Below are positions 1 through 26,610 of a stretch of DNA of 64,000 nucleotides, piece after piece. A program made the position numbers and the translations under genes. A model generated the notes under the pieces. It made no database searches. It worked only from the letters and a program-made list of their open reading frames with translations, and had not been told where the DNA came from. Origin of the DNA: Chara braunii (Eukaryota; Plantae; Charophyceae); assembly GCA_003427395.1 (NCBI GenBank), contig BFEA01000028.1, forward strand, positions 2,395,112-2,459,111, in the 5' to 3' direction. Numbering within the stretch: the first letter of the stretch is position 1; every line of letters starts with the position of its first letter.

Positions 1-1100
1 GGCCCGCACGCGAACTGACATCTTGGGGGGCTGAAGTCCCAAGCGCGGTCCGACGTCGGTCGACTAGGACGCATCCCGCACACCACCCGCACACCACTTT
101 ACGAACACAAAAATAAAACACACACACACATACACATGAAACGACACAACACAAACAACACGACAACGCTCCTAGCCCCTCGGTAGCCATCCCATAACTC
201 TCCGATGCGGAAATCAGGTAGGCGTCGCGCGCGAGACTTGGTATAAAACCGCGCGGACGCAGGGCTAACTCATGTCGACTCGCAATGCAAGCGTACACAA
301 GCGGTCGCAGTGATGGCGTACTATATAGTACCCATACTCACGCGGTCCCCCCCGTTAATCTTGAGGGTCGCATTCGACACTCAAGTGTCGGCTGACACGC
401 GCCTTGAGGGTTAATCTCTCGACGCTGGACAACCGCCATGCGCGGTTGAAGACCACACACCCTCTTCTGCACTCTGTGCACAGTGGGTGGTACACAGGTC
501 CATACCTGTGGTGGCAGTCGCTTCCTACTGCCCTGGGGAAAGTCCTACTCTAGGCCTAGGCAAAAGTCTAGGGGTTTGATTTTGACGGTTGCCACGGACT
601 ACAACGTCCAACCATAGAAACTCTAAAAAGCAAAGGATAACAGAGGGCTTTCCTTTCTCTCAAGCCATAGTCCGGTTAACCCTTATGCACAAATACAGTA
701 GGTCTCTCAAATACTCAGGGTACTCGTAAACATATGAGGGTTAGTTATATAGGACGATCACTTCTCACAGTCACAGTGAGGCTCCTCTTAGCCATATATG
801 TATGTAATCGCAGGCAGTCACATCCAAAGTCTGAACCACAAACGCACCGGCAATCACATCAAAGATTCAACCAAGAATCCACGCACTACCCGGGATCAAC
901 TTCAATCATTCTCTGCGCTCATACCCCTCGCTGCAGCCATACAAGCCTCACTCCTTCAACTCTTAAATAAGTACTCATTACTTTTGTTGGATGACCATTC
1001 AATAATGTCCGGGTGAAAACACAACAAAACAGTTCAATCACAAGGCTAAAGCCTTTAGGTTGAGTGGCAGGAGTGAATTGGAGTTGGATCGTAAACTGAC

Positions 1101-1154
1101 GAATCGGCAACCGACCTGTTATCAGTGATAACAGAAGATGATCCTCGTAGGATC
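1101..1154. other. Conserved triple-hairpin module of family A
   Basis: TCGG-caa-CCGA, CTGTTATC-agt-GATAACAG, GATCCT-cgt-AGGATC. Homologues at 12142-12195, 32344-32406 and (inverted) 33648-33711 show compensatory changes. Confidence 0.8.
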
Positions 1155-1401
1155 AAGCTGAAACTAGTCCAAGGCCTGAATCGAATGTCCAAGAAAGACC
1201 TGTACCATAAGATAGACCAATGTAAAGGCTAAACCTATAAGTCCATGGAGAGCAATCTCCATATCATGATCTTACCCAAATCACTCTAGTTAACCATATC
1301 TAAGCCTACCTCTAAGCAAATGTCCAAAGAAAGTTAGACCCATGGCAAAATCTCCCCTGGTCAGAGTGGATCGTCAGAATCACCACCTGTTCAACTTATA
1401 A

Positions 1402-1945
1402 TCTAACTCCTCTACATCAAGAAAATTTTGGCAGCGCTTCCCGTAGAAAAAATGCCCTTTCAGAATTTATATCAGTCCGAATATAAAAACATAAATAATC
1501 TCTAACTCTAGAAAGTCAACTTTTTTGTCTAACTCCCTGAATTAGTAAAAATTTGGGCAACATTCACTTTAGAAAGGAATATTTCCCAGATTTATACTAA
1601 GTCAGATATGAACTATTTAACTAGCGCCTTAGTTTTGCAGAAATTTCGTCAACACTCCTTTTAAAAAAGTGTTATTCTAAAATTTATACAAAGCTAAATC
1701 AAGAACTTGAGAATAACTTTGACTTCTCAAAATCCAATTTTATCTAACTCCCTGAACTAGCAAAAATTTGGGCAGCACTCCCTTTAGAAAAGGAGACTTT
1801 CCAGATTTTTACTAGGTCAGATATAAAGAAAAGAGAAGTTGAATTTTGACAAGTTCAAAATTGACTAACTCCTTGGATTTGTAGAAATTTCGGCAGCGCT
1901 TCCCGTAGAGAAAGTAGCTTTCCAAGATTTATACAAAGCCAAGTA
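1402..1945. repeat. Array of 5 long (~70 nt) imperfect hairpins, period ~90-125 bp
   Basis: Units start (t)ctaactcc and contain e.g. ctgaactagcaaaaatttggg...ccagatttttactaggtcag. The same array occurs in A2 (12447-13015) and its start in A4 (~32650-32705). Confidence 0.75.
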
Positions 1946-2228
1946 CAACAAAGGATCTCAAACTATGCGAGAATTGAAATAAGTAAAAAAAACTTAGCTC
2001 TGAAAATGCAAGAATTGAAAGTAACTTCTATGACTCTAGTACGCGGCGAGCCTCTAAAGCAACTACCTGTCAAACTGAAACTCAGACCAAGTAGTAGCCT
2101 CACTTAGTCACATGCAGGTCAAACCACAAAGGTAAATACTCTCACCATCCCCAAGTTGGTTCAGCAGACATAAGGTCATATTCTTTGAATGATTTAACCT
2201 TTTATACCCTACTTACATAGGGCATTGA

Positions 2229-3056
2229 GACTGGTCATTCGTCTTAAAAACAATGCCAGCTCTCTGCCTAGTTATACACGAACGGATTGCACAACTACTT
2301 TTCTCTTCATTGGGCATGTGACTAAGTCATTCATCTTGGAAACCATGCTTAGTCGCTCCGAACTGTTTAAATAGTTATGTTATATATACCTTTCTGCACC
2401 TTAGTCTTCAGAAAGAGGGCGTAGGGCTGAGTCATTCATCTTAGAAACAATGTTCAGCCTGCCCAGGTTACCTTTAGTTATAACTCTTGATTATACTCTC
2501 TTTGCTTGTGATAGGGCTATAGTCAGGCCATTCATCTTAGAAATAACGCCTGACTAACCTTGTTCGTATATAAGTACATATATATACGACATTATAGAGA
2601 ATCCTATTCCTTTATTCTCGTTATGGTCCTGAGGCCTCAGACTTAGACATTCATCTTAGAAACAATGTCTAGTCCTCTGACCCTGAATCCTCCCTCAGAA
2701 CAAAAACAATCAATGAGAGATGAGTCATTCACCTTAGAAACAATGCTCAGCTCTCTCTTTTTCAGCACACAAGAAAAGCAGGGTACCCTGGGTCTGACCC
2801 AGAGACTGTTCAAAAACCACCCAAGTAAAACAACGGTCGGACCATTCATCTTAGAAACAATGTCTGGCCCTCAAAAAGTCAAGCAAGCAATACCCCTCAG
2901 AAATAAGTAGTCAGACCATTCATCTTAAAAACAATGTCTGACACAATTAAAGAAACACAACAACTAAGCCATTCATCTTAGAAACAATGCTTGGTTCTTC
3001 AGAAAACAGAACAAAACATATTAGTCAGGCCATTCATCTTAGAAACAATGCCTGAC
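2229..3056. repeat. Array of 10 stem-loops with conserved core CATTCATCTTAGAAACAATG and variable, self-complementary outer stems
   Basis: Cores start at 2236, 2328, 2433, 2529, 2648, 2726, 2843, 2917, 2970 and 3031. Outer stems include gactaag/cttagtc, ggctgag/ttcagcc, tagtcagg/cctgacta, ggtcgga/tctggcc and gtcaga/tctgac. Confidence 0.9.
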
Positions 3057-4979
3057 CCCTTAAGACCCACTCAATCGTGAGCAAAACTGCCTTCCTCCCA
3101 ACCTTCGCCCTGGTGCAACCCCTTGTGACAATCTGCTTTCGGGCAATCAAGGAAATTGAAACTGCCATTATATATGCATTTCTTTAGTTAGTCTGATTTG
3201 TGTCCTGAAAGCCAATCCAAAAATCAAAGTAAGTGTTGCATACAGTACAGTCAACCAATACACAGGGAGGTATATAGATAGGGGTTATACTGGGTTTATA
3301 GGGGAAGGAAATGGTTACCTTTCAATTCCCTGCCTCCAAAGCCTCGCCTAGGTTCCGGCAGAGGTCTCGCAATCGGTTGGGCGAACCTCCCACAGAGGCC
3401 TTGGCACGGATTACGGGTTCCAATCCCGCCTTCCGCCTTCCTTTCAGAACCGATAGACTAGACTTAGACTAAGAAGGGCAGAAGTAGAAAGACTTAGTTT
3501 CTCAGATCCAAGAATGGTGCACTCAGACTCTCACGAGAGGGCCTCGATAGCTGGATACGCCTGAGGGTCCCACAATGCTGGCCAAAAACGAGACAATGGC
3601 TTGGTCAAACCGACGTCAATTTGTTGAAACAGGCTCCCCTAACGACTCCCGAATCGCAGCACTGACCCTCCTCACCATCACTCCTCCAACATTACAACAC
3701 CGCCCTTCTTTATGAGAAGCGCGCCAATGTGCACAGAACAAAGCAGAGTACACAGTTCCGTAGGCATCGACAGGCCGCTATGGCACACATCAGCACTCCC
3801 GACACTCTCAGCAGCAGCAACAGCTAGTACAGTGCCCCCAACAGCAGCAGCGATTAGTGCTACGGCAACAACTTCACCAACCAAACACAGCCATGTACTC
3901 CTCCTCAAGCTCAAACACCGCAGCAAGGTAACTTGAAAACAACTCATGATGATCACCGCAACCAGTAGTTGTCTATGTCAGCGGAAGATTTTCAGGGGAC
4001 ACTGCCATGCTGAAAACCCTTAGTAAACAGGAGTGTCGCAGTCTGCAGCAGACGGTAGCAACCACTGATCAACTGTAGCAACTGGCCTTTGCGATATATC
4101 CTTCCATAGGATGGGCAGGATCGAGTGGGCCTTCAAACTAGACCTGGCCAGATACAGCGCCGCCAAGTGCAGAGCTGCAGGTGGCTCCTATAGGTCAGGT
4201 GGCTCCCGCTCCTAACTCGACATAAACGAGCTCGGCGTAGCCTGATCAAGCCCCAGCTTCAGCTCCGATGGCCAACGGTAAAACGAACTATGAGCCGAAG
4301 CATAGCTGTCGCAAGGGAGGAGTGGTGATGGCTTCGCGATGAAGGTCCGCTTAATGCTCGCTTAGCTTGTTACGAAAACGCACAGCCACTATCCACACTT
4401 ACAAGCTTCGAGTGGCCGACCGAACATCGCTGAGAGGCGAGCTGACTTGCACCTCCGTTTGCTGATAGAGGGAACAAACGTCGAGTGGGTCTGTTGCCAA
4501 ACATGGGCAGGTGCACAACCCGCTGCACATTCACTACAGAAGGTCACTGCCCTGCCCGCCTTCACCATCATGCGAGCCCACATACACCGTGGCTCGACTT
4601 TCGATCCATCCCGCACCGCCAGTTTCGTACTTCCACGGCCTTGGTAAGTTCCTCACTCCTCTTTCTTCGCTTTACCCTGCCAAGGTTCGTACTTCCTCTC
4701 TCTCTCTCTCTCCCTCTCTCTCGTGTATCTCCGATGCTTGCGACTAGGACGGCGTGACATAGCTACAACCTCGGCTCATACCGCATTGTTACCTCGATTG
4801 TGCCTGTGGGTGTTTGCGAGGGCTACTCCCATCAACCTGACGAGCAACGCGCCAGTCAACAGGTAAGTCTCTATCCGCACGGTTGCCCTCCCGCTATCTA
4901 TTTCAATGGGATTCACAAAAGTGAATGAATCTATTCGCAAAAAACGGCCAGGTGCGTCGAACTCTACTAACTCATATCC

Positions 4980-5490
4980 TACTGACTCATTTCTAAAACT
5001 AAAGCTACTGTCACGCTCGCCCGACCAACAACCCTCAGTTTAGACCTCTGCTCGCCCGTTTTCATCAAGAAAACGGGCGAGTTTCACAACATTTACTCCC
5101 GCCATAGCCGCTTCTCCCGGTACCTCCGCGCACTGACTTTTTCTACTAACTCCACTTTTACTTACTTTCTACTGATTCTAACCGCATAATCTGCTTCGCC
5201 CATCCTAAAAACCCCAATTTAACATCTTAATTCGCTTGATTCTATCAAGAATCGAGCGAAATATCAATCTTCCCGTTTCTTTGATACTCCATCCTCCATT
5301 TCTTCGCGCACATCTTTTTCCCACTAACTCCTAACGTATTATCTTACTACTAAAACTAACACTAGATTCGGATTCGCCAGCCTAAAAAACTCTTACCTAC
5401 CCTCTCCCCCGGCTCGTTCTGGCTAAGAAACGGCGGGGTATGCGTCCTTTNCCCCCGCCATAGCCACTCCTCCCATTGCTGCGCATGCAC
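4980..5490. repeat. Three degenerate ~185-bp tandem units, each with a hairpin
   Basis: Hairpins ctcgcccgttttc-atcaa-gaaaacgggcgag, ttcgcttgattc-tatcaa-gaatcgagcgaa and ccccggctcgtt...aacggcgggg. A homologous array lies at ~16020-16520. Confidence 0.65.
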
Positions 5491-6312
5491 CCGGCGCACA
5501 TTCGCGCCCAGATTCAGCCCCCTCGTTCACCTGTTCTTCGCTGCCCGTCGCCCGCTGCCTTGCTATACGGCCCTAACGTTTTGCCGCAGCGACAAAACAA
5601 ACTCCCCTCTCGTGTCTGCTCCCTCCTTTCTGCCTTCCCCATCTCGCCCGCACCCGACACAGCCCCCCGTCCAGGTTCAACCCACTTCCCCTCTACTCCG
5701 CCTGCCTAGCGCCCGTAGGTACTGCCTCAGCGCCCCCGCAGCTGCCCGTCGGGTCCTTTCTTCCTCCCTACTTCGTCCGCCCGCTCGGTCTACCACTACT
5801 CCCTGCTCAGCGCCTCGCCCGCACCCGACTCTCGTCACCCGTTGCCTCGGACAATAGCGGACCCGCAGTCCGCTACTCGGAGATATGTCGTTGGTCCCGC
5901 CTCCTCTCGAGTGGCCCTGAGCAGAGACTGCTGATGCTCATAGGAGGAGGGGACCAGAGGGGTAGTCAAATGACCAGCCCTTCAAAGAGGCTCGGTCCTA
6001 ATGCTACCGGCCGCCCCCTGGCTGGTTTCACCCACCTACTGTAGCCGGTAGCGCACCTGCTGGTGGGTTCAGCCCCCACATGTTCCCACGTCAAAGGCTC
6101 GAGCACGGATATGGCTGCTACGGGGTTCCCCACAATACTATGAAGGGGTAACTTTGGCGTAGTCAGGACAACATTTCGTAATCGGACCTCAGGCAACCCG
6201 CGAATACAACGCACCCCCGTGCGTCTTTATATCAACCCCAATACCGCCTCCGAAACGGGACGCGAACAGGGGGAAAGCTAAAACCAGAAACGACAAGAGG
6301 TATAAGAAAAAA

Positions 6313-6343
<31 letters not shown>

Positions 6344-8718
6344 AACGGGGAAAAAGGAGAGGAACTACAAACACCTCGCCTCCCCCGTGGGTCGGGCCCG
6401 CCGCCATGCCCATTAACAAAATCGAGGGGGATCGTTGGGCCCTCAACCCCTCCTGTTTTGCTCCACACTGCTCCGCTGCCTCTGCGCCGACGCCCTGCTG
6501 GCCTCGATCCCCGGACCTCCGTATCATCAACCCAGTGCCGTAACCTCTAGGGCTAAGCCCAAGCCTGAGACTAGTGCCCGCAGAGTACCATACAAGGCAG
6601 TGTGGCGCGACGCTTTGCGCCAACAAACGGGTTGTGAGGTTCCCAGTGCCCGCGCCGGCTTGCTTATATCGTGCCATAATTGCCCCGCGCACCATCCTAC
6701 GTCGCCCCGCTCACCGCACGAAGTCACGCCGTCGTTGTCAATGTCATCGTCCTCGCACGGGCGCTTGCCTCAGTCGCAGGAAAATATCCTTAATTCCTAC
6801 TTAATCAAAAATAAATAAATAAAAATAAAACAAAGTTAAACAGGCCGGCGTCTGCGCCGGCTTTATAATCAACGACAGGGGGAAAAAAAAAATTCCGCGC
6901 GCCTCAAACCCTGCGCGCCCATACACTCTCTACTTACCGTACTGCCGCAAGTCGCGCGGCCTTCTCAACAATTCCAGGTTAAACTTGTTTTCTGTCACTT
7001 GCAACACCGCACTCCAATAAAACCCGCATTTGAAACCCGATCCAATGCGTGCGCCAACGCCCGTGCCACTCCCAATTCACACCCGTCCTCATTTTACCGT
7101 ACTCATACTACTTAAAAAAAAAAAAACGGCAGGGTCACCGCTCGCCACATCACCTCACCCGGCCTCACGAACACTCGTAGTACCACCACTTGACCATACA
7201 AAAAAAAAAAAGCTCCACTGCGCCAAAACAAAATCAGCAGCGCCTCAAAACTGCCAAGAAACGGGTAGCACTTCAGCACTGTCGAGGTGTAAATCACCCG
7301 CAAAATGGAGTGCAACCTGTCGCACGGTCACACCAATACTGCGTCGAAAAAGTCCTGCCGACATCGTAAATTTTCGGCAGCACATCCGCACCAAAATGGG
7401 GATCAGCTTGCTGCAAACCAGACCGTCGACACCTCCACCAACATCGCCTTGATGTTTTCGTTGCCGTCGTGGTCCCGCAGCGTCCCAAGTACCGTTCCGT
7501 TAGACAAGCATCAACGAGAAGGATGAGGAGTAGAGTGCTCCCTACCTCGATTTATGTATGCCATCCTTGCGTTGGGGCCATGCTAATTAGGCGCGTGCGA
7601 TTTCGGCCACGTGATCCAAGTGATCGTGAGGTCGAAATCGACCATGCTTTATTACTTCCAACATGGCTGCTCGAAAAGGAGCTGGCCCAAGTAGGGTGGT
7701 ATCGAGTTCGATCCAAGTATCTGTCGGGTGAAAGTCTGCTACATGATCCCACTGGGCTAGCTCCTGTTACACGGTAAACATAAGCAAGTCTTCATTATGA
7801 AGAGCTAACCAGCATATAACCCTGTAGGCTTCAGCCTGCCCCTGCCGCTTAAACTGTCGTCGCCCATCCCCGAAGCAAACATGAATTCATCCGCATAGGG
7901 TGGGGCATAAGTCTTTCGCCATGCCGACGCCGGTTCGAGTTCGAGCAGGGCAATTCTAAAATAAGATAAGTCTGAATCCCCCCGCTACTCTTATTACGAC
8001 TTACATGCCCAACGCGGCCACCCTTTATCCACTTAAACCCTGAGTCACTATTTTATATAGAATAGGTTTAGATTTAGTATTTCCAACAACCGTCTGCCTC
8101 TGCGGCCTTGCAAACGCAGGGTCGGTCAGTCATGCCATTGATCCTCTCCCTTGCTCTTGCAGGCCGCGAACGTCCAAACTTAAATAAAAATATTTTGACC
8201 TGTTGGTCGTGGGTGTGGTCTGAATCGACTTTTGGCAGATACCTGAATCTCATCAAGTAAACCCATTCAAACAAAATTTTACCATTAGTCAGACAATGCC
8301 CGATATTGAAAATCCCGAGCAGATACCCTTGTAAGGATTTTTGCGACACCGTGGTTGCGGGGCAACGCACAAAGAGTTGAGGGATGGACTCTATCTGATC
8401 ACATCTACGGGTCGTGCAAAGCCCCTCATTATGGGGACTTTTGTTGCCAGCCACTGTGTTGTAGGGACTACAAGATGGTAAATCTGCCATAGCAGCCTTG
8501 CCTTCCTCTGGTCGGGCAAGGTCTTCTGAATCTCGCATTGTTCCTACCATTTTCGCACCATCCATCAAAGGATTAGTGTTGAGGGGATCCACTCTCTTTT
8601 ATCTCACCTATCTATCAATTCCTCATATATATTTACTCTTGGCAGCAATAGCTGATGGATTGCCTTTGAAGTGATTGTTGTAGTGCAATACTCTTGTTTT
8701 AATTATAAGGGGAAGGTG

Positions 8719-10410: not shown

Positions 10411-11096
10411 TGTCAAACACATTAGTCCGCCACCGCACAAGCGGGGCGGGACCCTCCCGGCCGCGTCACGCAGGAGTTGGTCTTATCCTCATCGCAAAAT
10501 ACACATGGAGCTTTCGCAAGCCGCTCCGGCCGAGTGCGCCAGCCATACCCCTGGCGAACCCCTACGACAAGATAGGGCCTATGCAAGGCACGACTTACCT
10601 CCACCTTACGGGAGTTGTCACCTCCCTTTGGTGGGCGTATCCCCGCCGAGCTACCAGTCCACAATACGAAAGCTAATCAGTTGCAATCGCAGAGGTGGAC
10701 CAGCCGAGGGCNNNNNNNNNNNNNNNNNNNNNNNNNNNNNNNNNNNNNNNNNNNNNNNNNNNNNNNNNNNNNNNNNNNNNNNNNNNNNNNNNNNNNNNNN
10801 NNNNNNNNNNNNNNNNNNNNNNNNNNNNNNNNNNNNNNNNNNNNNNNNNNNNNNNNNNNNNNNNNNNNNNNNNNNNNNNNNNNNNNNNNNNNNNNNNNNN
10901 NNNNNNNNNNNNNNNNNNNNNNNNNNNNNNNNNNNNNNNNNNNNNNNNNNNNNNNNNNNNNNNNNNNNNNNNNNNNNNNNNNNNNNNNNNNNNNNNNNNN
11001 NNNNNNNNNNNNNNNNNNNNNNNNNNNNNNNNNNNNNNNNNNNNNNNNNNNNNNNNNNNNNNNNNNNNNNNNNNNNNNNNNNNNNNNNNNNNNNNN

Positions 11097-11156
<60 letters not shown>

Positions 11157-13297
11157 CGGCACAACCAAACAACGCACACAATCCTAGTCCCTTTAGTAGC
11201 CATCCCATAACTTTCCGATGCGGAAGTCGGATAGGCGACGCGCGCGAGACTTAGTATAAAACCGTGTGGACGCAGGACCTTCCCATATCGACTAGCGATG
11301 TATGAATATGCAAACAGTCGCAATGATGGCGTACTATGTAGTGCCTATAATCAAGCGGTCCCTCGTGGGCTCGAGTACCGCTTATGACACTCAAGTGTCA
11401 AACTCGAAGTATCGTGAGGGTCTACCTCTTCACGATATTGAAAGGTTGAAGGAACAGTCGTGCGGCCTCCGCAGCACCTCCGGCCTTTAGGCTGAGTGTC
11501 CCGGTGGGCACGGCAGATAGGCTCTGCGTGGGGGGTGATCCCTTCGAAGCAGAGTCTAGGACTTGGGATGTCTTGGACAAGGACCTCGAATCACGGCCCA
11601 GGACTAACGTCCGACTGAGAAATCTCTTTAAGAAGCATACAACAATAAAGGGGGTTTCCCTTGAAGTTACTTTCTCAATTTCAACCTCACTTAAACCCTT
11701 AAGCGTGGGCCCCTCAGACCACGTGAACACCCAAACATAGGTATGTACGTGTACATAAAAAAAAGGGAATAAGTATGTGATGATCACTTCTCACAATCAT
11801 AGTGGGACTCCTCACAGCTATATATATATATGTGATCGCAGAAAATCAAATTCAAAGTCCGAACCACAAAACATATCTCCAATCACATCAAAGAGTTAAC
11901 CAAAAGTCCACCCCCTACACGGAGTCAACTTAAACCATTCTCTATATTCATACCCCTTGCTTTAGCCATGCAAACCCCAACCTTTGTCAAACCTTTTATA
12001 ATTAAATACTCAGTACCTTTGTTAAATAAACATTCAATAAAAGTCCAGGTGAAAACCTTAATAAAATAATAAAACCCACCAGGGCTAAAGCCTTTTTAGG
12101 TCGAGTAATGAGAGTGGAGTGGAGTTGAGTCGTAAACCGACGAATCGGCAACCGACTTGTTATCAGTGATAACAAAAGATGATCCTCGTGGGATTAAGCT
12201 GAATCTATTACAAATCATGAATCAAACGACTTGGATCAAGAGGACCTGTAACACATGACAGGCCAATACTCAAACTAAATTCATAAGTGTATGGAGAATA
12301 AAGCTCCATAACACTTTCTCACCCAAGGTCCTCCTACAACTAAGTCTGAGCCTACCTCTAAGCCAGTACCCAACGTGAGGTAGACCTATGACAGCATCTC
12401 CCCTATTCAGGGTGGATTGTCAGAACTGCCACATGTCAAAATGTAACCTAACTTTTTTAAACTAAGAAAATTTCGGCAGCGCTTCCCGTATGAAAAGTGT
12501 CTTTCCAGAATTTATAATAACATAAATATGGAAAAAAAAAAATTATAATTATGGAAAGTTAAATTTTGTCTAACTCCCTGAATTGGTAAAAAATTGGGCA
12601 GCACTCCCTTTAGAAAAGAACACTCTCCAAATTTCTACGAAATCAGATATGCACCCGGAGTAAAACATGAGTTCAACTAAGACAAAATTTAACTAACTCC
12701 TTAGATTTGTAAAACTTTCAGCAGCACTCTCTTTAGAAAAATGTTAATCCAAGATTTATACAAAGCTAAGTTCAGAATCTAAAGTGACTTTCACTTCTCA
12801 AAGTCCAATTTTGTCTAACTCCCTGAATTAGCAAAAATTTGGGCAGCAGTCCCCTTAGAAAATTAGACTCTCCAGATTTTTACTAAGTCATATATAAAAG
12901 TGAGACAAGTTGAACTTTGAAAAAATAAAATCTGACCAACTTCTTGGTTTTGTATAAATTTTGGCAACGCTTCCCGTAGAGAAAGTGACTTACCAAGATT
13001 TATACAAGACCAAGTATAATAAAAGATCGCAGAAAATGCAGGAATTGACCTAAGTAAAATAAACTTGGCTCAGAAAATGCAAGAATTAAAACTAATTCCT
13101 ATAGCTCTAGCACGTGACGAGCAACTAAAGCAACTACTTATCAACTGAAACTGTGACTAAGTAGTGATCTCACTCAGCAACATGCAAGCCAAACCACAAA
13201 GGTAAGTACTCTCATCAACCCTAAGTCAAACTGGTCAAACAATTATTCGTAGTCGCTTACTAATCTGTCCCTTATGTCCAGCTCACATAAGGCATAA

Positions 13298-13999
13298 GCC
13301 AGACCACCTTATCTTATGGGAACTTATCTAGTTCAACCATAGAATATCCACAAACACAGGGCACTACAACTTTTCTCTTTTTTGGGCACATGACTAGGTT
13401 AGCCAACCTAGTCACCCTCGAGCATTTAAGTATCAAAGTTATTTATAATTGTTTGCACTTTGTCTTTTAAGGTAACATATGATTAAACCAGTCATCTTAG
13501 ATCAATGTTCATCCTGTCCCTTCTTAACACAATTTTATTTTTAATAAGCTATAGCTAGATCATCCAATCGTATGGAAAAATGTTTGACTAACCTGTTCAT
13601 AAATAGAGTATTATAAAATATAAATAAATTTTAACATTTTGGTTCCAACATGTGCGCGGCTTCAGACCAGACCACCCAATTTTATGGGAACTTGTCCAGT
13701 CCTTTGTCTGAATTTTTCCCTCAAAAATAAAACAAGAGAGAGTCAGGGTTATCCAATCTTATGGAACGTGCCCAACTCTCCTTCGGAACTAATAAAACAT
13801 AAGAAAACCCAAAAAAATAAGGCAACCAAGCCATCCAATCCTATGAAAAAAATGCTTAGTTCCTGAAAGTTAAACACAAATAATCATCGCAAGTCAAAGC
13901 AACCAAACCACCCAATCTTATGGGAACCTGTCTGGTCCTTCAGGCAATCGGAAATAAAAATAGCACTGGGTCCTCCAATTTTATGGAGACTATCCCAGC
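13298..13999. repeat. A2 version of the ATCTTA hexaloop stem-loop array (~9 units)
   Basis: Same position in the element as 2229-3056, but the inner stem is mostly CCA-ATCTTA-TGG instead of TTC-ATCTTA-GAA. Outer stems are again unit-specific (e.g. gctag/ttgac, aaccaag/cttagtt, ctggg/cccag). Confidence 0.8.
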
Positions 14000-15207
14000 C
14001 TTTGCTTAACCCAGTCAGCCACAAGCAAAATTGTCTTCCTCCCAACCTTCCCCAGTTGCATCCCCACAATCTGCTTTCAGTCAGACAAACAAACTGAAAC
14101 TGAAACTTGCACAATCATTCCTTTAATTAAGTCTGGTTTATCCTGAAAGTCAAACTGAAAGTCAAAGTAGGGATGCAGGTAAGATACTCAGTCAACCATA
14201 GCAAGACATACATGTAGGGGTTATAATTGGGCTTATAGAAGAAAAGCAAATGATTGCCTCTCAGTTCTCTGCCTCCAGAACTCCTCCTGAGTTCCGACAG
14301 AGCTCCTGCTCTCAGACTCGCACGAGAGGGCCTTGATTCTTTAACTCGCCCGAGGGTCTCGCAATGGCGGCCAAATATACAGCAACTTAGCCAACCGAAG
14401 TCAAACCGTTGTTCGTTGATTCCCCGACAATTCTTCAGATTCAACAACAATCCTTTCGCAGAAGTCTGACGTCACTTCCAACCCCACGCCGCCGCCACTT
14501 CTTACCAAATCGTTGCTATGTAACCCTAGATGGGTGTATTTTTGTGCTTTTACTCGATATGCAGACAAACCAGTGGGGACTCAGTAAGAAACTGTGCATT
14601 TAACAATCATGCGTAGCAATGACACACCTCAACAATGTATAGCGGAAGCGTAGCTCAATATGTAAAGGAAGTTTAACATGCTTACTAGAGGTTCATCCTC
14701 AGCACGACATCCCAACTGCCCTTGGCAATAGTGCCTGATAACCTTTAGAGAGGACCGTAGGCATAGCGGCATGCAACATGTCACTGTGTCATCTGCAATT
14801 GGTAGGCTATACGTAGTGGTGGCGACTGCCCAGTATCACCGATATACGCCAACAAAGACGAGCAGTGTCACTGCCTGTTATAGTCAACGTTGCGCCTGTT
14901 TATTCTCCTTTAGAGACGACCCTTAGTCCTCCGAGTCATAGCAGATGTGCCCCTCAACCAAGTACCTTAGAGCAGAACACAGCGAACAGACCGTGTGCAC
15001 CTACCCATACTCCTCCTCCGATCGAGCGACTGCCCAAGTCTGCCCTCGGACTGCAAACAACTGCACCCGCTAACTCGTTTGGCTGCAAAACAATCCGCCT
15101 GTTGGCTCGATTGGCTACACTCATACCAGTTCGACAAGGCTCGCTCACTCGTTCTCTCTCTTTCCCCCTCGTACTCAGCGTGCGGCTGCAGCACTGCTTA
15201 CGACCTG

Positions 15208-15699
15208 CACAAGCGGTTATCGGGTAGCTGAAAATTCAGGAATGAAAATTATGAAGTGAGAGTTTTTGGCAGTCTGAAAATCTTGAATGGTCCTGAAGTG
15301 GTGAAAGGTTCGAAGACCCTGAAAACCACCTGTTTAGGCAGGCTGCATCCTGAAGTGGTCAAGGGTGTCTTGAAGTGGTCAAGGGTGTCCTGAAGTGGTC
15401 AAGTGAGAGTTTTGGGCAGTCTGAAAATCCTGAATGGTCTTGAAGTGGTGAAAGGTCCGAAGACCATGAAAACCACCCTTCACTACTTGAGGATGCAACC
15501 TGCCTAAATAGGTGGTTTTCAGGGTCTTCGGACCTTTCACCACTTCAGGACCATTCATGATTTTCAGACATGAATGCTCCTGAAGTGGCGAAAGGTCCGA
15601 AGACCCTGAAAACCACCTGTTTAGGCAGGCTGCATCCTGAAGTGGTGAAGGGTGTCTTGAAGTGGTGATGAAAAATACGACTGTTGTTAACCTTCTCTC
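15208..15699 (+). mobile_element. Family B: TIR-less ~0.48 kb non-autonomous element with 8-bp TSD, nested in A2
   Basis: Ends are CACAAGCGGTTA and TTAACCTTCTCTC. Flanks acgacctg/atgacccg differ only by two CpG transitions. The interior is made of direct and inverted tcctgaagtggtgaa subrepeats. Confidence 0.8.
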
Positions 15700-18083
15700 A
15701 TGACCCGATGCATTCGACTACCATGTTGAGCAACACACCACCTTCATCGCTAGTATGAGCGAAATCTGAATAAATCCTCCACTGAAACGCGGAAGCTCAC
15801 ATCACCTGTTAACAACCCCGCGCACAGATGGATAGAAGAAGGTCACTTCCGTCGTCGAAATGAGCACCGTACCGGCCAATAGGTAAGTCTTTTGTCCCCG
15901 TGGCCGATCTCTCATTTCCTCCACCGAAAACAATCAAGCAAAACCAAATGAACTTATCCCTAGAACTGGGATAGGTGTGTGACCAAATATAATCACGCAG
16001 TACCTATCTTTGACAACATCAAGACTAACGCCCTATCTCTGATTCTAAAACCACCCATTAACCCTTATTCCTCACATCCCTAGTTAGCAAGGTATCTCGC
16101 TTGGCCTTTACCAAGAAACAACCGAGATATGCAGTCCCCGCTCCCTATCTTTGTTCTTCCCCGATACCTTCACGCAGTTCGTTGTTCCTCGTGCACCGAA
16201 ACTAACCTTCCTTTGTCAAAACTGAGTCTACCAATCAACTCGCGGTATCTAAAAAACCCCAAAACGAACTTTCACTCGGCTGCCTTCATGAAGAGACGGG
16301 TAAGTTACTCGAACTTTGTTCCCTCCATATTCGTCTTCACCACTTCTTCTCGCAACTCTTTTCTCCCCTCTCTCTCCCCTTACTAACTTTCTACTAATTC
16401 TACACTTTAAAACAGGGTCGCCACCTCCTAAAATCCCCGACTAGAGCCCTTCCCTACCAGTTCTCACTAAAAAGCGAGTGGGGCACGACAAATCTTCCTC
16501 GCCATAGTCTCCCCTCCTTCGTCACTTGCTCCGCCGGATGCCACCCGCGCGCCTAACGCGATTGCGCGTCCTGATTCGGTCCGCTCTCTCTATTAGCACA
16601 CGCAGCGCGTATAGTCGATTGGCCTGTAGTCGTCCTCATACGGACCGAAACCTTCAGACAGGCGGATTACCATTAAGCGGCTTAGTCGGCTTTCTTCGCT
16701 CCTATACATGAGACCAACGATGGTTGACACGCCAATACCGCTATGGCCCTCGCTCCTATTTCCTACTCGATGAGCGCACCTAGAGTAGCAGTACTATGTG
16801 CCCCCTCCCATACATCACCGCACTTCTCCTGCTTTACATACACCTCGACGTTTTTCCCGTCCAGATCCAACTTTTTACATTACTTCACTACCTCTGCCCG
16901 CCTTAGTCAGCGCCGAAGAGACAACGCTCCAACGTTGAGGCAAGTGGAAGGGTGCGGCCAGCTGCAGATCTTGGAGGTAGTAGCAACATTCAAATGGGAA
17001 CTTTGAAGCCCGACGTGAAAAAGAGTTCCACGTAACCGGTCGGGCACTCAGATTAGCAGCGGGCTTCCTCACTGTGCCCCGACCGCTATTCCCAAGGCCC
17101 AGCTCACCATCTTCCGAGTCCCAACCGGCATGCTTAAATTCAAACCTCTCACAGAAGACTGTGGTTGTCGATTGGTACGCCTGCAACGGGGCCTCGCTAC
17201 TCCGGATTCCTTCGCTTCATGGGCCAGCCGCCCCACTGGCTCACCTGCACGTTGAACTCCTCGGTCCACGTTACGAGCCGGACAAAAATAGAGAAATTCC
17301 TCCAGCATCCCGAACGGGCCCACCAACAGCGGTGCCCGCTCAAGGTCCTCGACTGCCATGGCGGCCACTACATTCGGCGTCGTGTCCAAGCCAAAGGGAC
17401 GCTGGAGCACGAAGATAATAATAATAAGTCAACAAATAATCACCTGCTTAAAAAGATCAGTCGTTCGAGAACGACTTGCGGGGAGAAAGGAACCGTTGGC
17501 ACCGATCCGACTCCGCTGACGACAAAACCAAGGGGGATAGCCCCGCCAGGCCTTCAACCCCTTGGTCCCTTCACGCTACTCTGACATTTCCTACGTCGCC
17601 TCCGCTCGATCTCGATCCTTGAATCTTTTGGTTGGAAATCCCATACTGTAACCAATAGTATTGGCCAAAGGTTGGGTCTAGTACCGATTGACACCTAAAT
17701 AAACAGATGTTGCGCGTCGTGCAGATCTATCGAAATATTTTCAAAATCACATTGTTGTCGATGTAGTCCTCCGCACGTTCGCACAAGTCATAGGCAAGCG
17801 CTCCAAATACAAGACATAATCTTTTTGATCCTAACTTAGTCGGAAAAATAAAAAATTTGGTCGGCGACTAACGCCGGTTTCCACAATTTATCAAAAGAAA
17901 ACAGATCACGCACGCCTTAAGTCTGCGCGCCCACACACTCTCTACTCTAGTCATCCATTTAATCATTGTAAGCCCCAAACACAGTTGCACCTCATGCGGG
18001 ATACTTAAACTTTAAACCAAACCTATTTTTTGTTGCTTGCGAAAACCAGGGCGGATACCCTTGTAAGGGTATTCGTACCGACA

Positions 18084-21000
18084 ATGGCCCCGTCTGTGTG
18101 TGGTAGATAAGTGGCAAAGTGGAGCTGAGGCGATTGGCCAATATCTTCTCCAAGATCTTGTACGTAGAGTTAAGGACCGAGATCGACCATAGTTTCGTAC
18201 ATCGTCCTTCGGGCTCTTCTTGCAAATAAGGACTACATATACATTTGCAAGAACTAGCAGGCATTATGGAAAGTTTCCGCCAGGAACAGGGTGAAGGTGA
18301 TATGGAATTCCTCATAGTAAAAGTCAAGCGAAATCCTTTCTAATCCTGGTGTCTTCAAACGAGGCAGTTCTGCGATCACCTATAGCCGCCGAAACATCTA
18401 CCCACACGTCCTTTTCCAGACTACTCTTCCGGAAACAGATATTTGTAGTACTACTCCATATACCCCAACATACCCGCGATTGTATCCTTTTTACCTCTTG
18501 CTGCGTCGAACTGGTGTTTCCATGGTGGTTATAATAAAAGTTTCCTTATTTTTCTCAGTTTAGCAAAGAATCTCCTTGTTATTTTCTCCTTCACCAACGT
18601 CTAAGCAACTCTCATCCTCCTTCCTCATTTCATTGTTTCCTCCGCGTCGCTTGCCATGCCTTTCACTCCTTGATTGCTTTCACCCTCTCTTCACATCATT
18701 CCTCCTTTGTTTGAACATCCAGCGGGTCCTTATGGAGCTCCCCCAAGTTTTTTATGGAGTCTTGCCCAGATCTTTGATACGACTCGTAAGTCCATTTCAA
18801 TGTTGGTTGCAATGTCTTCTTAACGTTGGCCACCTATACACATAGCCAGTTCAACTTGTTGTAAGTGACTTTACATTTCCATCATTTCCACTATTAAGTC
18901 TTTGTAATCATGCGATCATAATACTCAAGCCGCCATTGAAAAACAAGTTATAACCATAGAGTGGTCTGACGTAGCCGACGGACAAATCTTGACCTCCTTG
19001 CAGCTATTGACAATATCACGGGTAGGCCATATAAAGTCAATCCTGGTTTTTTTCGCTGCATGGGACCCAATGTAGCTATACTTCATATTGTTTGAGTGCA
19101 ATACTCGGTACACATCCTTATATGCCAACTCCGCCATGGCCATTTGAAGTGCAACCGAGTCCAGCTCCATTATCTTAATTCCCCTAACGTTCAATCCGGA
19201 CAAATACCTGTGTGAAATCCTCGATAATTATAAAGTTGTTCACCTCCGGTAGCAGCGTTGCAGGCCTTCCCACATTCTTCTCCGTTCGCTCCCGTCAGTC
19301 AGGACGTAGATCGTTTTGGAACTCAAATCTCCTAATCCCATTTCAACAAAACCCATGCTCACTTTCACCTTGAGTCATAGAACCAATCAGTCACCTACCT
19401 CGAAAGTGGGGGGGGACCAGAAGTGCCCCCCCCCCCCTTCATCCCTCGAGTTGTAGCCCACAACTGGTGTCCCTTCCACCATGGTAGGGGAGAGGTGATT
19501 TTGTGTTCCTCCAACTTCGTCTCCTGCACGAACACCACTTCAATCTGTATGTTTTTAACAAAGGATATGAGTTCCTTTCGTCTGGGTTTATCAATTTTAG
19601 CCCCATGCCTTTAATATTCCATGTAAGTAATTTCATATGATTGAGTTTTTTACTCCCACCGATGGTCGAACATACCCACCAAGTTCCCACTACGTTAATC
19701 CCTTTGGACAACCCCTCCCAAATTGCTAATGAAAAAAACAAACACAATTACCCACCAAACCCGTGCTATGCCCAACCTAATCACCTACACATCCTCAAGA
19801 AAAAGAACGACATACATTTTTATGTGTCGAGAAAGGGTGCCCATCCCAGGGCCCCCACGGAAAAATAGTCTCTCGATCTCTCCCTTTTACCTATTGCCTA
19901 TCCTAAAAAAAAATTATCACTCCCGATGTACTCGTGGATAGGGAGCTTCGCATTAATGCTCCTCAAGATCGACATGGTGGAGTCGTGTACTATATGAAAC
20001 TCTCATGGTCGTGCTACCGGTTTTTATCCTTAGAACGTTCACCCATCTAGCTTTGTGTAACCCCAAGCCAGAGAAATCTGACATGCTCGGAGTGATAATC
20101 AAAAGTCGTTGCCCATACGAGTGAATCTTATAAACTTGTATGTTGAAGGAGGGGGAGCCTTGCAACATCGTAATAGCGACTCACCCAGTGACAAACCTGT
20201 TGGACTACCAACCTTTCCTACAGTAGAGCAGTGACCTTTATCACCAACATCGCGTTCCTTCCTTTCACATGGGGGTTCATGTGCCCACCAAAGAATGAAA
20301 GGGTAGGCATAACCGTCACCTGCCACCAAGATATTCGTTAGATTGCTCGGGGCTATCTCCTACCCCACCCTCCCCCCTTCATTTTTCCCTTGCTCTATCC
20401 CATCGTCAGTTGCGCCCATAAAGACACTCCATCCACTATTCAAAATTTTACTCCCCCTACTTGTTTTTTCCTTGTCCAATGCTTCCCGACATATTTCTCC
20501 CACCTCGTCACTCCGCAGTTGATGACCATCTTCCTCGTCCCTACAACCCTTCTCTTCACCCAATCTGCCAAATCCTTTGCTTCCCCACGTTTCTCTCCAA
20601 ACTCGTCACTTCTCAACTAATGGTCATCCTCATCGTCCCTGCAACCCTTCCCTTCACCTAATCTGCTGAGTCCCTCCCCATGGTTGTTGTCCATTGACCT
20701 TCCCCGCTCTCTTCCTCACTCTCAACATCACCTTCTCTACTGTCTTTCCCAACTTCCTCCACGGGGCCACCAACAAACCATTTTGCCTCCCCACCAAAAT
20801 CATTTCCACTATCATTCATCGCCTTCCGATTGGGTTCCCACTGTTGACTTGCACTTTTTTGGCCAGACCCTTTATACCCCCTCTCCCTCCTGAACAATGT
20901 CCTCATAATCCTGTTGCATCGGGGAGTTGACCACGTCACCACTTCCAGTCTCCCCCCTTCTGATTTTGTAAGCTCCTCGCTTTTGTTGCCATATCGCTGC

Positions 21001-21480
21001 ATCAGGGGGCCTGCGGCGTCTCGACTCACCATCCTCTTCCCTCCGTACTCCATAGACTTATCCTTCCATTCATCGAAACTTACGAATGTCTTCCCTTCCC
21101 CTACCAGATCAACAATTTGTTTCTCGCGCTCCCTCGGTGGGGGTGAAGCCACCTTTGGTCCGACACTCCTAGGCCAGTACCTGGGAGTTTGCACTTTCGC
21201 TCGTATCTTGGCAATCTACAACGAGGATGTTTACCTTTTCCTTCCTTGTCAAGTCTCACCATGCCTTGTATTGCTCCGCCGATCCAACTCTCTCTGGTAT
21301 CCTCGACTGATACAAGTGGACTCTTGCGAGACCGACATACTCAATGGGACATCTTCTCAACCAGCTCCCTAGTTGGCCTCATTGCGACCTACTTTTTCCT
21401 TCTCGTATGCCTATCTTAATTTCGCTCTCACTTCCCTTGCATCCGGCCTTGCTCCCGTCGACTTTCCTCTTCTGTTTGAG
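18084..21480 (-). pseudogene. L1/Tx1-clade LINE 5' part: ORF1 remnants (~19900-21450) and ORF2 APE endonuclease plus start of RT, decayed
   Basis: MKLLTWNIKG (from 19636), VQETKL, KTRIDFIW and SDHSMV endonuclease motifs, and the YKILEKILANRL...HTQTG RT motif ending at 18088. Continues at 10410. The 5' boundary is approximate. Confidence 0.88.
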
Positions 21481-21529
21481 TGTCACACGTGACACACGAC
21501 CAGATACCCTCTAAGGCACAACCTATTCT

Positions 21530-22004
21530 GAGAGAAGGTTAACAACAATCGTATTTTTCATCACCACTTCAGGACTCCCTTCACCGCTTCAGGATGCAGC
21601 AGCCTGCCTAAATAGGTGGTTTTCAGGGTCTTCGGACCTTTCACTACTTCAGGACCATTCACGTCTGAAAATCCTGAATGGTCCTGAAGTGGTGAAAACT
21701 TCGAAGACCCTGAAAACCACCTGTTTAGGCAGGCTACATCCTAAAGTGGTGAAGGGTGGTTTTCATGGTTTTCGGATCTTTCATCACTTCAGGACCATTT
21801 ATTATTTTCAGACTATCCAAAACTCTCACTTGACCACTTCAGGACACTCTTCACCACTTCAGGATGCAGCCTGCCTAAACAGGTAGTTTTTATGGTCTTC
21901 GGACCTTTCACCACTTCAGGACCATTTAGGATTTTCAGACTGCCAAAAACTTTCAATTCAGAATTTTCATTCCTGAATTTTCAGCTAGCCGATAACCGCT
22001 TGTG
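21530..22004 (-). mobile_element. Family B copy 2
   Basis: Reverse complement of 15208-15699 with the same ends. Perfect 8-bp TSD cctattct (21522-21529, 22005-22012). Confidence 0.85.
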
Positions 22005-22257
22005 CCTATTCTACAACTACACATTTCACCTTCCCCTCCCCCTTTCCATCCATTGTAGGTTCATGACATTTTAACTACCTTCACTTTGGTGGTTATGAAT
22101 TGGCCAATACTAAAAGGTTGATGCAAAATGTTCCACAATTCAATAAAAAACATAATTGTTCATATATTTATGAAACCTGTTAAAATAACTGAGAAGCTGC
22201 ATTTGAAATATATCTATATATCTATATATGTATAATCCAACTAAGTAGATAAATAAC

Positions 22258-22467
22258 CTGGGCTACCAGTCGTGCCGCCTGGGTCCCCAAAGTTGGCACG
22301 GGACCTGCCTCGGACGCCCGACCATATAACTGGGTCGGGCAGGGTCCCAACCGATATCCCACAAAAAACAAAATAAAAAGTTAATTTTTTTTTTATTGAG
22401 GGTTACTTCCAAAGTCTTCACAGAATTTGAAATAAAAATAAAATAATGGATGAAAAATCATTTCACC
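22258..22467 (+). mobile_element. Left end of a hAT-like MITE (TIR CTGGGCTACCAGTCG)
   Basis: The TIR and subterminal sequence resemble 30347-30619 and 56160-56880. The matching end is uncertain. Confidence 0.5.
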
Positions 22468-24353
22468 CTGTTTCCAGAGTTCCTCCTGAACTTCGGCAGA
22501 GCTCCCACAATTGCTCTGTTATCAGCCTATGCAATTAATTGTGTGGACCCAAAGTTCGCAAAAAACAGGATTATCTTACTGGAAGTACGCCATAAGTCAC
22601 TTATAGTCGAAGAGATAGGTGTTTGAGAGGATCAAACAACCATAAGAACGGAGGAGGATGGAGGAGGTAGGCACCATCACAAAGTGATAATGTCTCTCTC
22701 CTTTCGTTATGCCTCGTATTCTCTTCCTCTCCGACCCTTGTTTAATACATGATGTTTAATAATAGCAATAGTAAAACAACAAAATAACCAATAATAATAA
22801 TAATAATAACTGGGTAGAAAGCCGTACGCGTACGAACCCAAAATCGCGTGTACTCGTACAGAAAAAACAAAACACAAATATGAAAAAAACGTATGTTGTG
22901 CAGAACAATGATACAAACAACATTTGTCTGAGAGTCATACCCGAATTCCCAACCAATCTTGATTTAAAAATCAAAAACCTTAAAGAAAACTTTAAAATAA
23001 TAATAATAATAAATTATGTTTAAATAGTTTTTAAATTATTATGATAATATTACCTTTTTTTTAGTTTTTAATTTCTTACTCGAGTTTGATTGGGAATACG
23101 GGGATGACTCCAGGGCAAAAGTTGTTTGTATCATGCATAATATATATTTGTTATAGAAGTTTATTTTTTTTGTGTCTTTGATTTTTCACTCGAGTTTCGT
23201 ACAGAATTTGGCGATGAATCTCAGGCAAAAGTTGTTGCAAATATCATTTTGCATAACATACTTTTGTTTCAGATTTGTCTGACAACGGTTTGTTTTTTTT
23301 TTTTTACGTATTCTCACGTACGGGAGGACATTTACACGCGTACGTGTCGTGTTGTCGGGGCAAATACCCTCACAAGGGTATTTGTCAAGGTTTTTCAATG
23401 TCAGACGCTGTCTGACCTTTTTTCTTTAAATCGAAGGACTTGATGAGACTGGCGTTTGCTAAAAAGCTTATTCAGATCTGACCTATGATTGAGAGACAAA
23501 AAGTTTTCAGACTTTAGTCCGGACGCGTGTGGCGCCCAGGAGTAACGAATGTGAACGGCAATGCTTCGCGTCTGTCAAAGCCGCAGGAATGTGCGGATAA
23601 GGGACTGCTAAAATTAAACCTATCCTACCGCGGCACACTCAGCATGAGCCGCCCGATTGAATGGGCGGCAGTGTGTGTGCTGCAGGACCAGAAGACCGTC
23701 GTACCGACAACGGCGCAGCTAGCATTGAGAAAGGAGGCCGACAAGGCCTGCCTTTGGTCGTGGTTGGGTAGCCTGCTGGGCTGCTACCCTTCATATAGAA
23801 GAGTAACAGGCTTAACTTCTGTGAAAAGGAGCTAGCCTAGTATGTTACCATGTCAAACTCTTACCGTGTTGATACCGGGATCGAATCCAATAGGCCCTAC
23901 TGGGCGCAGCTCCTTTTGGAGTTGCCTTTCTATAGGGCGCGGTCAACCTCGAACGCCCGATCACGAAGATCGCGCGACCAAGATTGGTCGCGCGAGATTA
24001 GCGTGACCCCTGCGCAAGTATGACACGCACAAATCAAGAAAATGGCCCAAGTTTTTTTTCGATTCCCTTCACTCGGGTCTGTATTTCAACAAGTTTACTG
24101 CCGTTGGCATAAGCCAACGGCTTCAATATTACTGCGCCAGATGGCGCAGAGAGATGTGGTTGGGGACTTACAGTCCCCAGAGAAGGCCCGTTGAAAACGG
24201 GCAGCCATTTTCTTTTAAGTTTTCTTTTTGTTTTTCTTTTCAGTTATTTAGATTTTTTCTTTAGATTTTCTTGTTATATTTTGTTAGATTTTTTCCTTTT
24301 TTTTTTTTTTTTTTTTTTTGAATGCCCGTTCATTTCAAACGAACGGGTGACTA

Positions 24354-24406
24354 GACTGTTTCGTCGGGGTTGCGCCAACTCATCAGGAGGTTGGACCTCG
24401 ACAGTC
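24354..24406 (-). ncRNA. Type III hammerhead ribozyme (copy 1)
   Basis: Minus strand GACUGU-C^GAGG-UCCAA-CCUC-CUGAUGA-GUUGG-CGCAACC-CCGAC-GAA-ACAGUC. Complete core with GUC cleavage triplet, and stems I, II and III all pair. Confidence 0.92.
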
Positions 24407-24635
24407 CAATCGTTGCGCGTGAACCTTACGCTGAAGGCAACCAGGTGCAGAGAAAGAGAGAAGGGGAAAGAAAGGGGGGGAGCCACCAAACTTACCTATG
24501 GTTGGCCCCTCCGTGCAGCTTTCAACAATAGGATAAGCAAAATCGAATGAATCTCCCACCAGAAAGTGGGAGAATACATCCTCGCGTGCAGTGGCGAAGC
24601 CACTGCTACAGCTGCGACCAAGGAGGGTTGTGCCA

Positions 24636-24688
24636 GACTGTTTCGTCGGACTCTCACCGACTCATCAGGAGGTTGGACCTCGACAGTC
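24636..24688 (-). ncRNA. Type III hammerhead ribozyme (copy 2)
   Basis: Minus strand GACUGU-C^GAGG-UCCAA-CCUC-CUGAUGA-GUCGG-UGAGAGU-CCGAC-GAA-ACAGUC. Differs from copy 1 only in stem II and loop II, with pairing preserved. Confidence 0.93.
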
Positions 24689-25087
24689 AGCCCCTGCGCC
24701 TGAACCCGGCGCCGATAGCGTCTAGGTTCAGGCATATATAGAGAGAGAGAGAGGGGGAGAGAGGGAGAGGGAGAGAGAGCGAGAGGGAGAGAAAAAGAGA
24801 GAGGAAGGGTACCTACCCTACCTACCTACCTACCTATCTGGTTGACCCCGTGGTACTTCCAACGATGGGATGACCAAAATCGAAGGAATCTACCCCAAGG
24901 ACAAGGGGAGATTCACGCTACAGATAGAAAAGGTAAGTTGTTGTTTTTTTTGCTTTCTTCTTTTGTTTTTGTTTGTTTCTTTTTCTTCGTTTTTTTAGCT
25001 CGCCCACGTCACGTGGCCGTTGGCGTATAGAAAGCAGGGGAAAACGGGGAAGGATGAAACGAAATAAACAAAGAAACTGTAAAAAAA

Positions 25088-25118
<31 letters not shown>

Positions 25119-26244: not shown

Positions 26245-26610
26245 TTTTTTTCGGCAGCGGTACGGAGGTGTTGTCGAAATTCTGCGGCGGCGGCACGGGT
26301 TTTTACAACAGCGATATGGAGGTGCTGCCAAAATTTTGCGGCGGTAGTTCTGGTTTTCTCGGCGGTGATGCGGAAGCGCTGCCCGGATTTTGCGGCGGCG
26401 GTTCTGGTTTTCTCGACGGTGGTGCGGAAGCTCTGCCGGATTTTTGCGGCGGCGGTTCTCGTTTTCTCGGCGGTGATGCGAAACCACTGCCGGATTTTTG
26501 CGGCGGAGGTTCTGGATTTTTTCGGCGGTGGTACGGAAGCGCTGTCGGATTTTTGCGGCGGCAACTCCGGTTTTAACGGCGGCAGTGCGAAAGCGCTGCC
26601 GGATTTTGTT
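26245..26610. repeat. 54-bp GC-rich minisatellite (~6.5 copies) inside A3
   Basis: Unit ggttttctcggcggtgatgcggaagcgctgccggatttttgcggcggcggttct. Produces 18-aa periodic ORFs in several frames. Confidence 0.85.

Follow-up and report, generated by a model that had tools for sequence, protein, structure and literature searches.

What is a short sequence doing ten times over, at irregular intervals, in the genome of the charophyte Chara braunii? In a 64,000-nt stretch of this genome (hereafter the window), plus-strand copies of a 20-nt core begin at 2236, 2328, 2433, 2529, 2648, 2726, 2843, 2917, 2970, and 3031. Five cores are exact and five carry one or two mismatches, where the chance mean is 0.01 matches; with up to three mismatches allowed, the core is absent from the rest of the window. 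The scan bears out an earlier interpretation of the locus made from its letters alone (the sequence-only reading), which had described ten cores at a spacing of 53–119 nt, and base composition agrees with the T-rich left and A-rich right linkers noted there (T 0.34–0.42 in linkers 1–4, A 0.36–0.65 in linkers 5–9). Tandem Repeats Finder did not report the array, and no Rfam family matches it. Homologous arrays lie at the matching place in a second copy of the surrounding element (copy 2, array at 13295–14004, minus strand) and in a public contig, L001. L001 is the sole true extra copy from scans of sequence collections: three other hits (L002–L004) are single cores without paired flanks, taken as chance, and further scans for array copies returned none beyond L001.

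A short core repeated at intervals, with linkers that differ, resembles a CRISPR array. The sequence-only reading had called the array CRISPR-looking yet not CRISPR, and a CRISPR array is indeed ruled out by the irregular spacing, by flanks that pair across the core, and by linkers that are colinear with other copies of the element and thus inherited with it. The host is a eukaryote, the gaps between cores have no uniform length (33–99 nt), and the repeat has no match among Rfam families. None of 145 stop-to-stop frames of at least 95 aa, a set that left out frames with N runs, matched a Cas family in Pfam, and none of 50,697 phage records matched the array.

The array (2229–3056, putatively minus strand) instead reads as ten hairpins, each with a unit-specific outer stem of about 7 bp, an asymmetric internal loop, an inner UUC/GAA helix, and a hexaloop that is UAAGAU on the minus strand and ATCTTA on the plus strand. 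The loops occupy 2241–2246, 2333–2338, 2438–2443, 2534–2539, and 2653–2658 in units 1–5 and 2731–2736, 2848–2853, 2922–2927, 2975–2980, and 3036–3041 in units 6–10. The outer stems were evaluated with one register search, applied alike to true and swapped partners. True partners form 60 of 70 possible Watson-Crick (WC) pairs, compared with 46.1 ± 3.5 in partner permutations (p=7e-5); a narrower register search gave 59/70 versus 44.3 (p=1e-5). Thus, each unit pairs best with itself. Flanks paired straight against the core edges give no signal (11/60 WC, under the permutation mean), as the pairing is offset by one: the final base of the core has its partner just before the core. With the register shifted by this base, the earlier claim that unit-specific flanks are complementary within each unit stands, and complementarity is above chance in all three arrays, the outer stems being self-specific in copy 2 (41/56, p=0.007) and in L001 (53/70, p=0.005) as well. 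A perfect 14-bp inverted repeat (2102–2115 and 2314–2327) would pair in competition with the unit-2 outer stem.

Thermodynamic predictions give a less uniform picture. On both strands the array region is predicted to fold more stably than its shuffled versions (z −4.66 plus, −3.51 minus; 20 per strand), and mean unit z-scores are −2.9 plus and −2.7 minus in copy 1, −0.8 and −1.9 in copy 2, and −1.8 and −3.5 in L001. The 3-bp inner helix of copy 1 is marginal, with a mean predicted probability of 0.27 on the plus and 0.14 on the minus strand in a set that took in one copy-2 unit with a wrongly placed loop, and it competes with a CATT/AATG fold. A rod with ten side arms, as envisaged in the sequence-only reading, is unsupported by these models: duplexes between left and right linkers were equalled in 31 of 200 shuffles on the plus and 127 of 200 on the minus strand, and the partition-function test in which the real array exceeded all shuffles, on both strands, comprised only six.

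Closing stems that change in copy 2 and L001 strongly support the hexaloop fold. The TTC-ATCTTA-GAA core fold proposed earlier is borne out, its helix being intact in eight of ten copy-1 units and covarying across the three arrays. The copy-2 array holds eight loop-bearing units, closed mostly by CCA/TGG (plus letters), and one unit that retains only the outer stem. The loop consensus in copy 2 and L001 is A[T/A]CTTA on the plus and UAAG[A/U]U on the minus strand. Over 28 units the successive loop positions read A in 27, T in 19 and A in 8, C in 26, T in 26, T in 28, and A in 27; only position 2, with C in the remaining unit, varies, the other positions being held in 26–28 of 28. Besides the TTC/GAA type of copy 1, this loop is closed by five further stem types (CCA/TGG, CTG/CAG, CAA/TTG, CTA/TAG, and GTC/GAT), six in all. 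The inner three pairs are WC in 77 of 84 cases over the 28 units, versus 37.2 ± 6.2 and a maximum of 64 in permutations, and in 24 of 30 (p=1e-5) when 10 distinct stem types are counted once each; these pair counts are not based on a MAFFT alignment of 40-nt units, in which TTC-type units fell out of register. Among 18 distinct rows, 87.5% of cells are paired and two-sided changes occur at all four pairs, with 26 two-sided cells versus 7.4 expected, counts that do not represent independent events since the units are akin. No shuffle of 500 reached the observed number of cells paired, of two-sided cells, or the score, whereas two type-count measures of covariation were as high in 128 and 108 of 500 shuffles; slid controls were lower.

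Outside the arrays, none of 61 hexamer occurrences is closed by three WC pairs. A covariance model, a check that the sequence-only reading had suggested, was trained on 15 units drawn from copy 2 and L001, with copy-1 units left out; in 66 kb it recovered 8 of the 10 copy-1 units (E 1e-5 to 0.55) along with two further units also withheld, and it made one unrelated hit. In an allele readout showing 4 of many array positions, family alleles restore WC pairs at 2839, where A makes up 6835 of a summed depth of 6911, and at 2928, where G makes up 24684 of 26769. The conserved loop on covarying stems supports the earlier picture of a multivalent display of many identical loops, and covariation singles out one loop as apparently maintained by selection. 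Three CTG/CAG-type units of L001 (336–497) read GUAAGU, the 5' splice-site consensus, on the minus strand; other unit types lack it.

How did one loop come to sit on so many stems? The three arrays are colinear, with best between-copy linker matches of 0.70–0.75 as against 0.14–0.57 among copy-1 linkers themselves. Identity of the 14-nt loop module is 0.93 within copy 1 and 0.48 versus copy 2 and 0.57 versus L001 (7 positions each), and in L001 the module types are arranged as a run along the array. At one array position the outer stem is retained and the loop module is gone in both copy 2 and L001; at 13392–13413 and at L001 25–42, a 4-nt loop stands in its place. The sequences point to concerted evolution of the loop module on an older scaffold. 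An ancestral hairpin would have been multiplied into an array, and its outer stems would then have diverged, each unit coming to pair best with itself. Selection would preserve UAAG[A/U]U as a loop on 3–4 closing pairs, while new loop modules may spread along the array via template switching or gene conversion. Much the same could arise with no selection, the array being a neutral by-product of hairpin tandem duplication, template-switch correction, and gene conversion. Retroelements gather tandem repeats without known function, according to the surveys cited (PMC11963269, PMC6317226), some units have lost the loop module, and a distant element copy in the window lacks the motif. We nevertheless consider neutrality unlikely: the loop is nearly fixed while the adjoining pairs shift among six stem types in copies that are only ~67% identical, and wobbles and the asymmetric internal loop are retained instead of being mended to perfect palindromes.

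The host of the array is a 7–9 kb high-copy element, likely the long terminal repeat (LTR) of a Ty3/gypsy retrotransposon, as far as its ends and insertion sites indicate. Five copies lie in the window. Copy 1 (1–8348, minus strand) runs off the left window edge; it starts with TGTCG at 8348, adjoins CCGT in a LINE remnant, and is likely a solo or 5' LTR. Copy 2 (10411–18083, 7673 bp, minus) has TGTC..GACA ends, a target duplication ACGG/ATGG, and no internal terminal direct repeat. It splits a LINE reverse transcriptase, with a Pfam RVT_1 match on one side (E 2.9e-6) and the continuation read by eye. The truncated copy 3 (31088–32720, minus) comprises the downstream end only and ends short of the array. 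Copy 4 (23353–30225, 6873 bp, plus) is distant, with TGTCG..CGACA ends and a target duplication GTGT/GCGT, and copy 5 (34324–34644, plus) is a downstream end with terminal GACA followed by ACGC. Self-comparison aligns 84–3366 with 11100–14305 at 67%, and colinear blocks continue to ~8350 and 18080. TG..CA termini are seen at both ends of copies 2 and 4 and at the single visible end of copies 1, 3, and 5; the 4-bp target duplications of copies 2 and 4 each contain one CpG-type mismatch. Summed DNA depth over the array is 15,000–25,000 compared with ~10 on single-copy DNA, which would suggest copies on the order of thousands, although summed depth is not itself a copy number. Within copy 1, depth is near single-copy over 3732–5740 and 6889–8036 and high-copy again over 5741–6888; the low-depth stretches may be a variable upstream part of the element.

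Several other features accompany the element. A second array in copy 1 (1395–1960, minus) consists of about five degenerate 92–123 bp repeats with several predicted long imperfect hairpins, the apical sequence of which recalls the main hexaloop motif; it recurs at 12436–13025, and its minus-strand unit z-scores reach −6.4, with others near 0. Sequences like the 3' half of a plant-type U6 snRNA occupy homologous places in copy 1 (7529–7589, minus) and copy 4 (23994–24055, plus); they lie on the inferred sense strand and score under the Rfam gathering score (E 0.015 and 1.3e-6, respectively). Copy 4 lacks any match to the hexaloop covariance model; at the site of the copy-1 and copy-2 arrays it carries numerous hairpins unrelated to them, as well as 54-bp repeats (25480–26650, plus). 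It also contains a type III hammerhead ribozyme (24635–24689, minus; 50.6 bits), antisense to the inferred sense strand, with a second, similar hammerhead copy at about 24353–24410, and a decayed 461-codon frame with six stops (27621–29003, plus). Relatives of this frame are four hypothetical proteins of Chara braunii, none with retrotransposon domains; no Pfam family matched it, and two other searches gave no match. All six protein matches of a neighbouring frame are from Chara braunii, and another frame matches a conserved land-plant protein. A ~500-bp, internally palindromic MITE-like repeat is present in three copies (15207–15700, nested in copy 2; 21529–22005; and 32809–33075). Farther along the window, 39132–41612 (plus) is an expressed single-copy gene akin to land-plant 'stress response NST1-like' or U-box-bearing proteins.

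Assignment to Ty3/gypsy rests on details of insertion. TG/CA ends and 4–5 bp duplications are LTR hallmarks, and a preference for NCGN targets is attributed to the Phygy clade in the survey cited (PMC6317226); here, an NCGN 4-mer is at a junction in four of five insertions and four of seven junctions. Phygy elements as surveyed there are short and mostly polyprotein, in contrast to the 6.9–8.3+ kb seen here without a polyprotein, and the LTRs of non-chromoviruses extend to about 5 kb, so that a length of 7–9 kb, beyond the LTRs cited, counts against the LTR reading (PMC6317226). No gag, pol, second LTR, primer-binding site (PBS), or polypurine tract lies beside any of the five copies in the window, and no loose read ends, taken as a PBS probe, are listed at the element end at 34644. 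With no second LTR, PBS, or gag-pol, the copies are presumably solo LTRs, though copy 1 may instead be a 5' LTR; paired LTRs, gag-pol, and a PBS are not expected beside solo LTRs.

The same gaps, together with the unusual length and the near single-copy depth of half of copy 1 at 90% likeness, would fit a non-autonomous TG..CA element moved not as an LTR but by an integrase-like transposase, presumably Ginger-like; the array would then serve another step. Ginger-type DNA transposons, however, have long terminal inverted repeats, while the inverted repeat between the ends of this element is merely 4–5 bp (TGTC or TGTCG), and its TATA box is internal. In a rice long-LTR family, moreover, solo LTRs outnumber complete elements (429 versus 162) in the data cited (PMC3485330). 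We therefore regard a transposase-driven element as improbable and retain the LTR reading.

On which strand would the array act? We consider the minus strand the probable sense strand. A TATA-like box lies ~240 nt upstream of the array in copy 1 (3295–3300, minus, CTATAAA context) and at 14230–14238 (minus) in copy 2, and is kept in all three aligned copies (copy 1, copy 2, and L001). If it acts as a promoter, minus-strand transcription would start ~210 nt before the array. The sequence-only reading had taken wobble pairs to favour plus-strand RNA. This holds for copy 1 (six G.T, two A.C), but the other two arrays show the opposite bias (19 A.C, six G.T, p=0.015), with pooled numbers (21 A.C versus 12 G.T, p=0.16) not significant; at the fourth inner pair, seven wobbles are of the A.C type and none G.T. 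One of the wobbles cited for the plus strand, at 2839, is private to copy 1, with A in 99% of genomic summed depth.

Stranded RNA-seq, the check proposed for this question, sides in part with the minus strand. First mates map to the minus strand for the plus-strand gene at 39132–41612 in three runs; by this calibration, array reads in runs X5 and X7 are almost all minus-strand RNA. Over 2297–3157, X5 gave 0.61, 1.27, and 0.86 on the minus versus 0, 0, and 0.26 on the plus strand, and X7 gave 0.7, 0.3, and 0.02 versus 0, a signal of a handful of reads at depth ~1, none 99% alike to copy 1. Run X6 covers both strands (6.4, 5.1, and 2.7 minus versus 5.5, 5.0, and 12.1 plus) and has a plus-strand excess over 1–2296. 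In X6 alone, both strands of another element end have reads too, and the run may thus hold unstranded background.

A plus-strand non-coding RNA, a ten-armed rod acting as a CsrB-like protein sponge, would draw on the copy-1 wobbles, on the whole-array z-score, which like the fold of copy 1 itself is slightly better on the plus strand, on the X6 plus-strand excess, and on the six-shuffle rod test. CsrB-type sponges are independent, abundant small RNAs with GGA loops. Here, by contrast, the array belongs to a transposable element of high copy number, there is no GGA loop, and family-summed RNA depth in X5 and X7 (oligo-dT libraries) is ~1, below that of one single-copy gene (1–9); RNA is scarce in all three poly(A) runs, making an abundant sponge unlikely, at least in poly(A) RNA. 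As the wobble bias of the other arrays, the private 2839 wobble, the minus-strand TATA box and X5 and X7 reads, and the non-significant linker-duplex test also speak against it, we find the sponge suggested in the sequence-only reading highly improbable.

As to function, we lean, on sequence evidence, towards an RNA array through which the element binds a protein: stems that vary freely beneath a conserved loop fit selection by a single-stranded-RNA-binding protein. A minus-strand leader RNA would fold into insulated hairpins, each exposing UAAG[A/U]U, and would present a single protein, most likely Gag of the element, with many identical loops for selective packaging. Gag is favoured as partner by analogy with the clustered packaging signals described for satellite tobacco necrosis virus (STNV; PMC5699041). 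Gag as ligand is a guess from this analogy, and so is capsid nucleation, our best functional guess, while action at the RNA level is what we infer; a role specifically in Gag packaging is possible, if doubtful. Export or translation factors rank next, ahead of DNA-level and neutral origins.

Within the protein-binding reading, a smaller share falls to ligands other than Gag: a host RNA-binding or element accessory protein might govern export, stability, splicing, or translation of the leader. All structural evidence for the array fits this tentative view; the minus-strand array RNA contains 24 AUGs, which would impede scanning, and IAP and MusD carry structured export elements in the work cited (PMC12786077). 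The decayed frame of copy 4, with relatives in Chara only, suggests a candidate accessory protein, but the copy that bears the frame lacks the hexaloop motif.

Alternatively, the hairpins may act as DNA, in the strong-stop single strand made in reverse transcription, an extruded cruciform, or a promoter-proximal motif for a transcription or anti-silencing protein. Covariation would be the same for RNA and single-stranded DNA, the array is 240 nt from the TATA box, and family RNA is scarce. However, a double-stranded motif needs no complementary, freely covarying flanks, and wobbles are strand-biased in two arrays; we give DNA-level action little weight. Returning to protein-bound RNA, its most elaborate version is a self-homogenising, MS2-like cassette: a family with 7–9 kb LTRs would carry an 8–10-valent hexaloop array on mutually insulated leader-RNA stems, with modules swapped by concerted evolution, as a family-specific Gag packaging code in which different closing stems mark different subfamilies. 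Taken jointly, these propositions are speculative. If a protein ligand exists, the loop–protein pair would make a novel RNA tag whose stems are non-repetitive by nature.

How does the array compare with known systems? Large Ty3/gypsy elements are already known to carry repeat arrays, and retroelement RNA to contain structured cis-elements; in a search of mainly open-access literature, we found no account of this element, nor of a hexaloop array on covarying stems within an LTR. CsrB/RsmZ sponges, MS2 and boxB cassettes, and the Xist A-repeat repeat a single loop many times on short stems between unstructured linkers, as does the array; in contrast to these, its RNA is not free or abundant, it resides inside a transposable element, and its loop is not GGA, AUUA, or GNRA-like. 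The CTE of MPMV and the RRE of HIV are structured, protein-binding cis-elements of retroelement RNA. The RTE of IAP and the MTE of MusD are a further likeness of this kind, yet comprise one or two modules as described, compared with 8–10 homogenised units here (PMC12786077). The array has no sequence or Rfam similarity to any of these four export elements. Direct studies of the export of plant LTR-element RNA are lacking, according to the source cited (PMC12786077).

Among plant elements, the closest likeness is to the non-chromovirus Ty3/gypsy giants Ogre, Tat, and Retand, which have a long non-coding region with repeat arrays (PMC6317226, PMC11963269); arrays of this sort are common among large Ty3/gypsy elements of plants and are described as having no known function (PMC11963269). 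TG..CA ends and a 4-bp duplication are common to these giants and the element, while the NCGN preference is that of Phygy (PMC6317226). The element differs from the giants in its 7–9 kb, longer than the LTRs cited (PMC6317226, PMC11963269), and thus points to terminal repeats longer than those in the cited survey (PMC6317226). It differs also in that the hexaloop array is a loop motif on covarying stems and no plain tandem repeat; no polyprotein that would place its lineage is linked to the element in the sequences analysed. In STNV, stem-loops near the 5' end share a loop motif on different stems, and the same combination of shared loop motif and variable stems is found here (PMC5699041). Compared with the STNV signals as cited, the Chara braunii array is regular, has a six-base loop and a two-helix scaffold, and resides in a retroelement, where capsid binding would be by analogy (PMC5699041).
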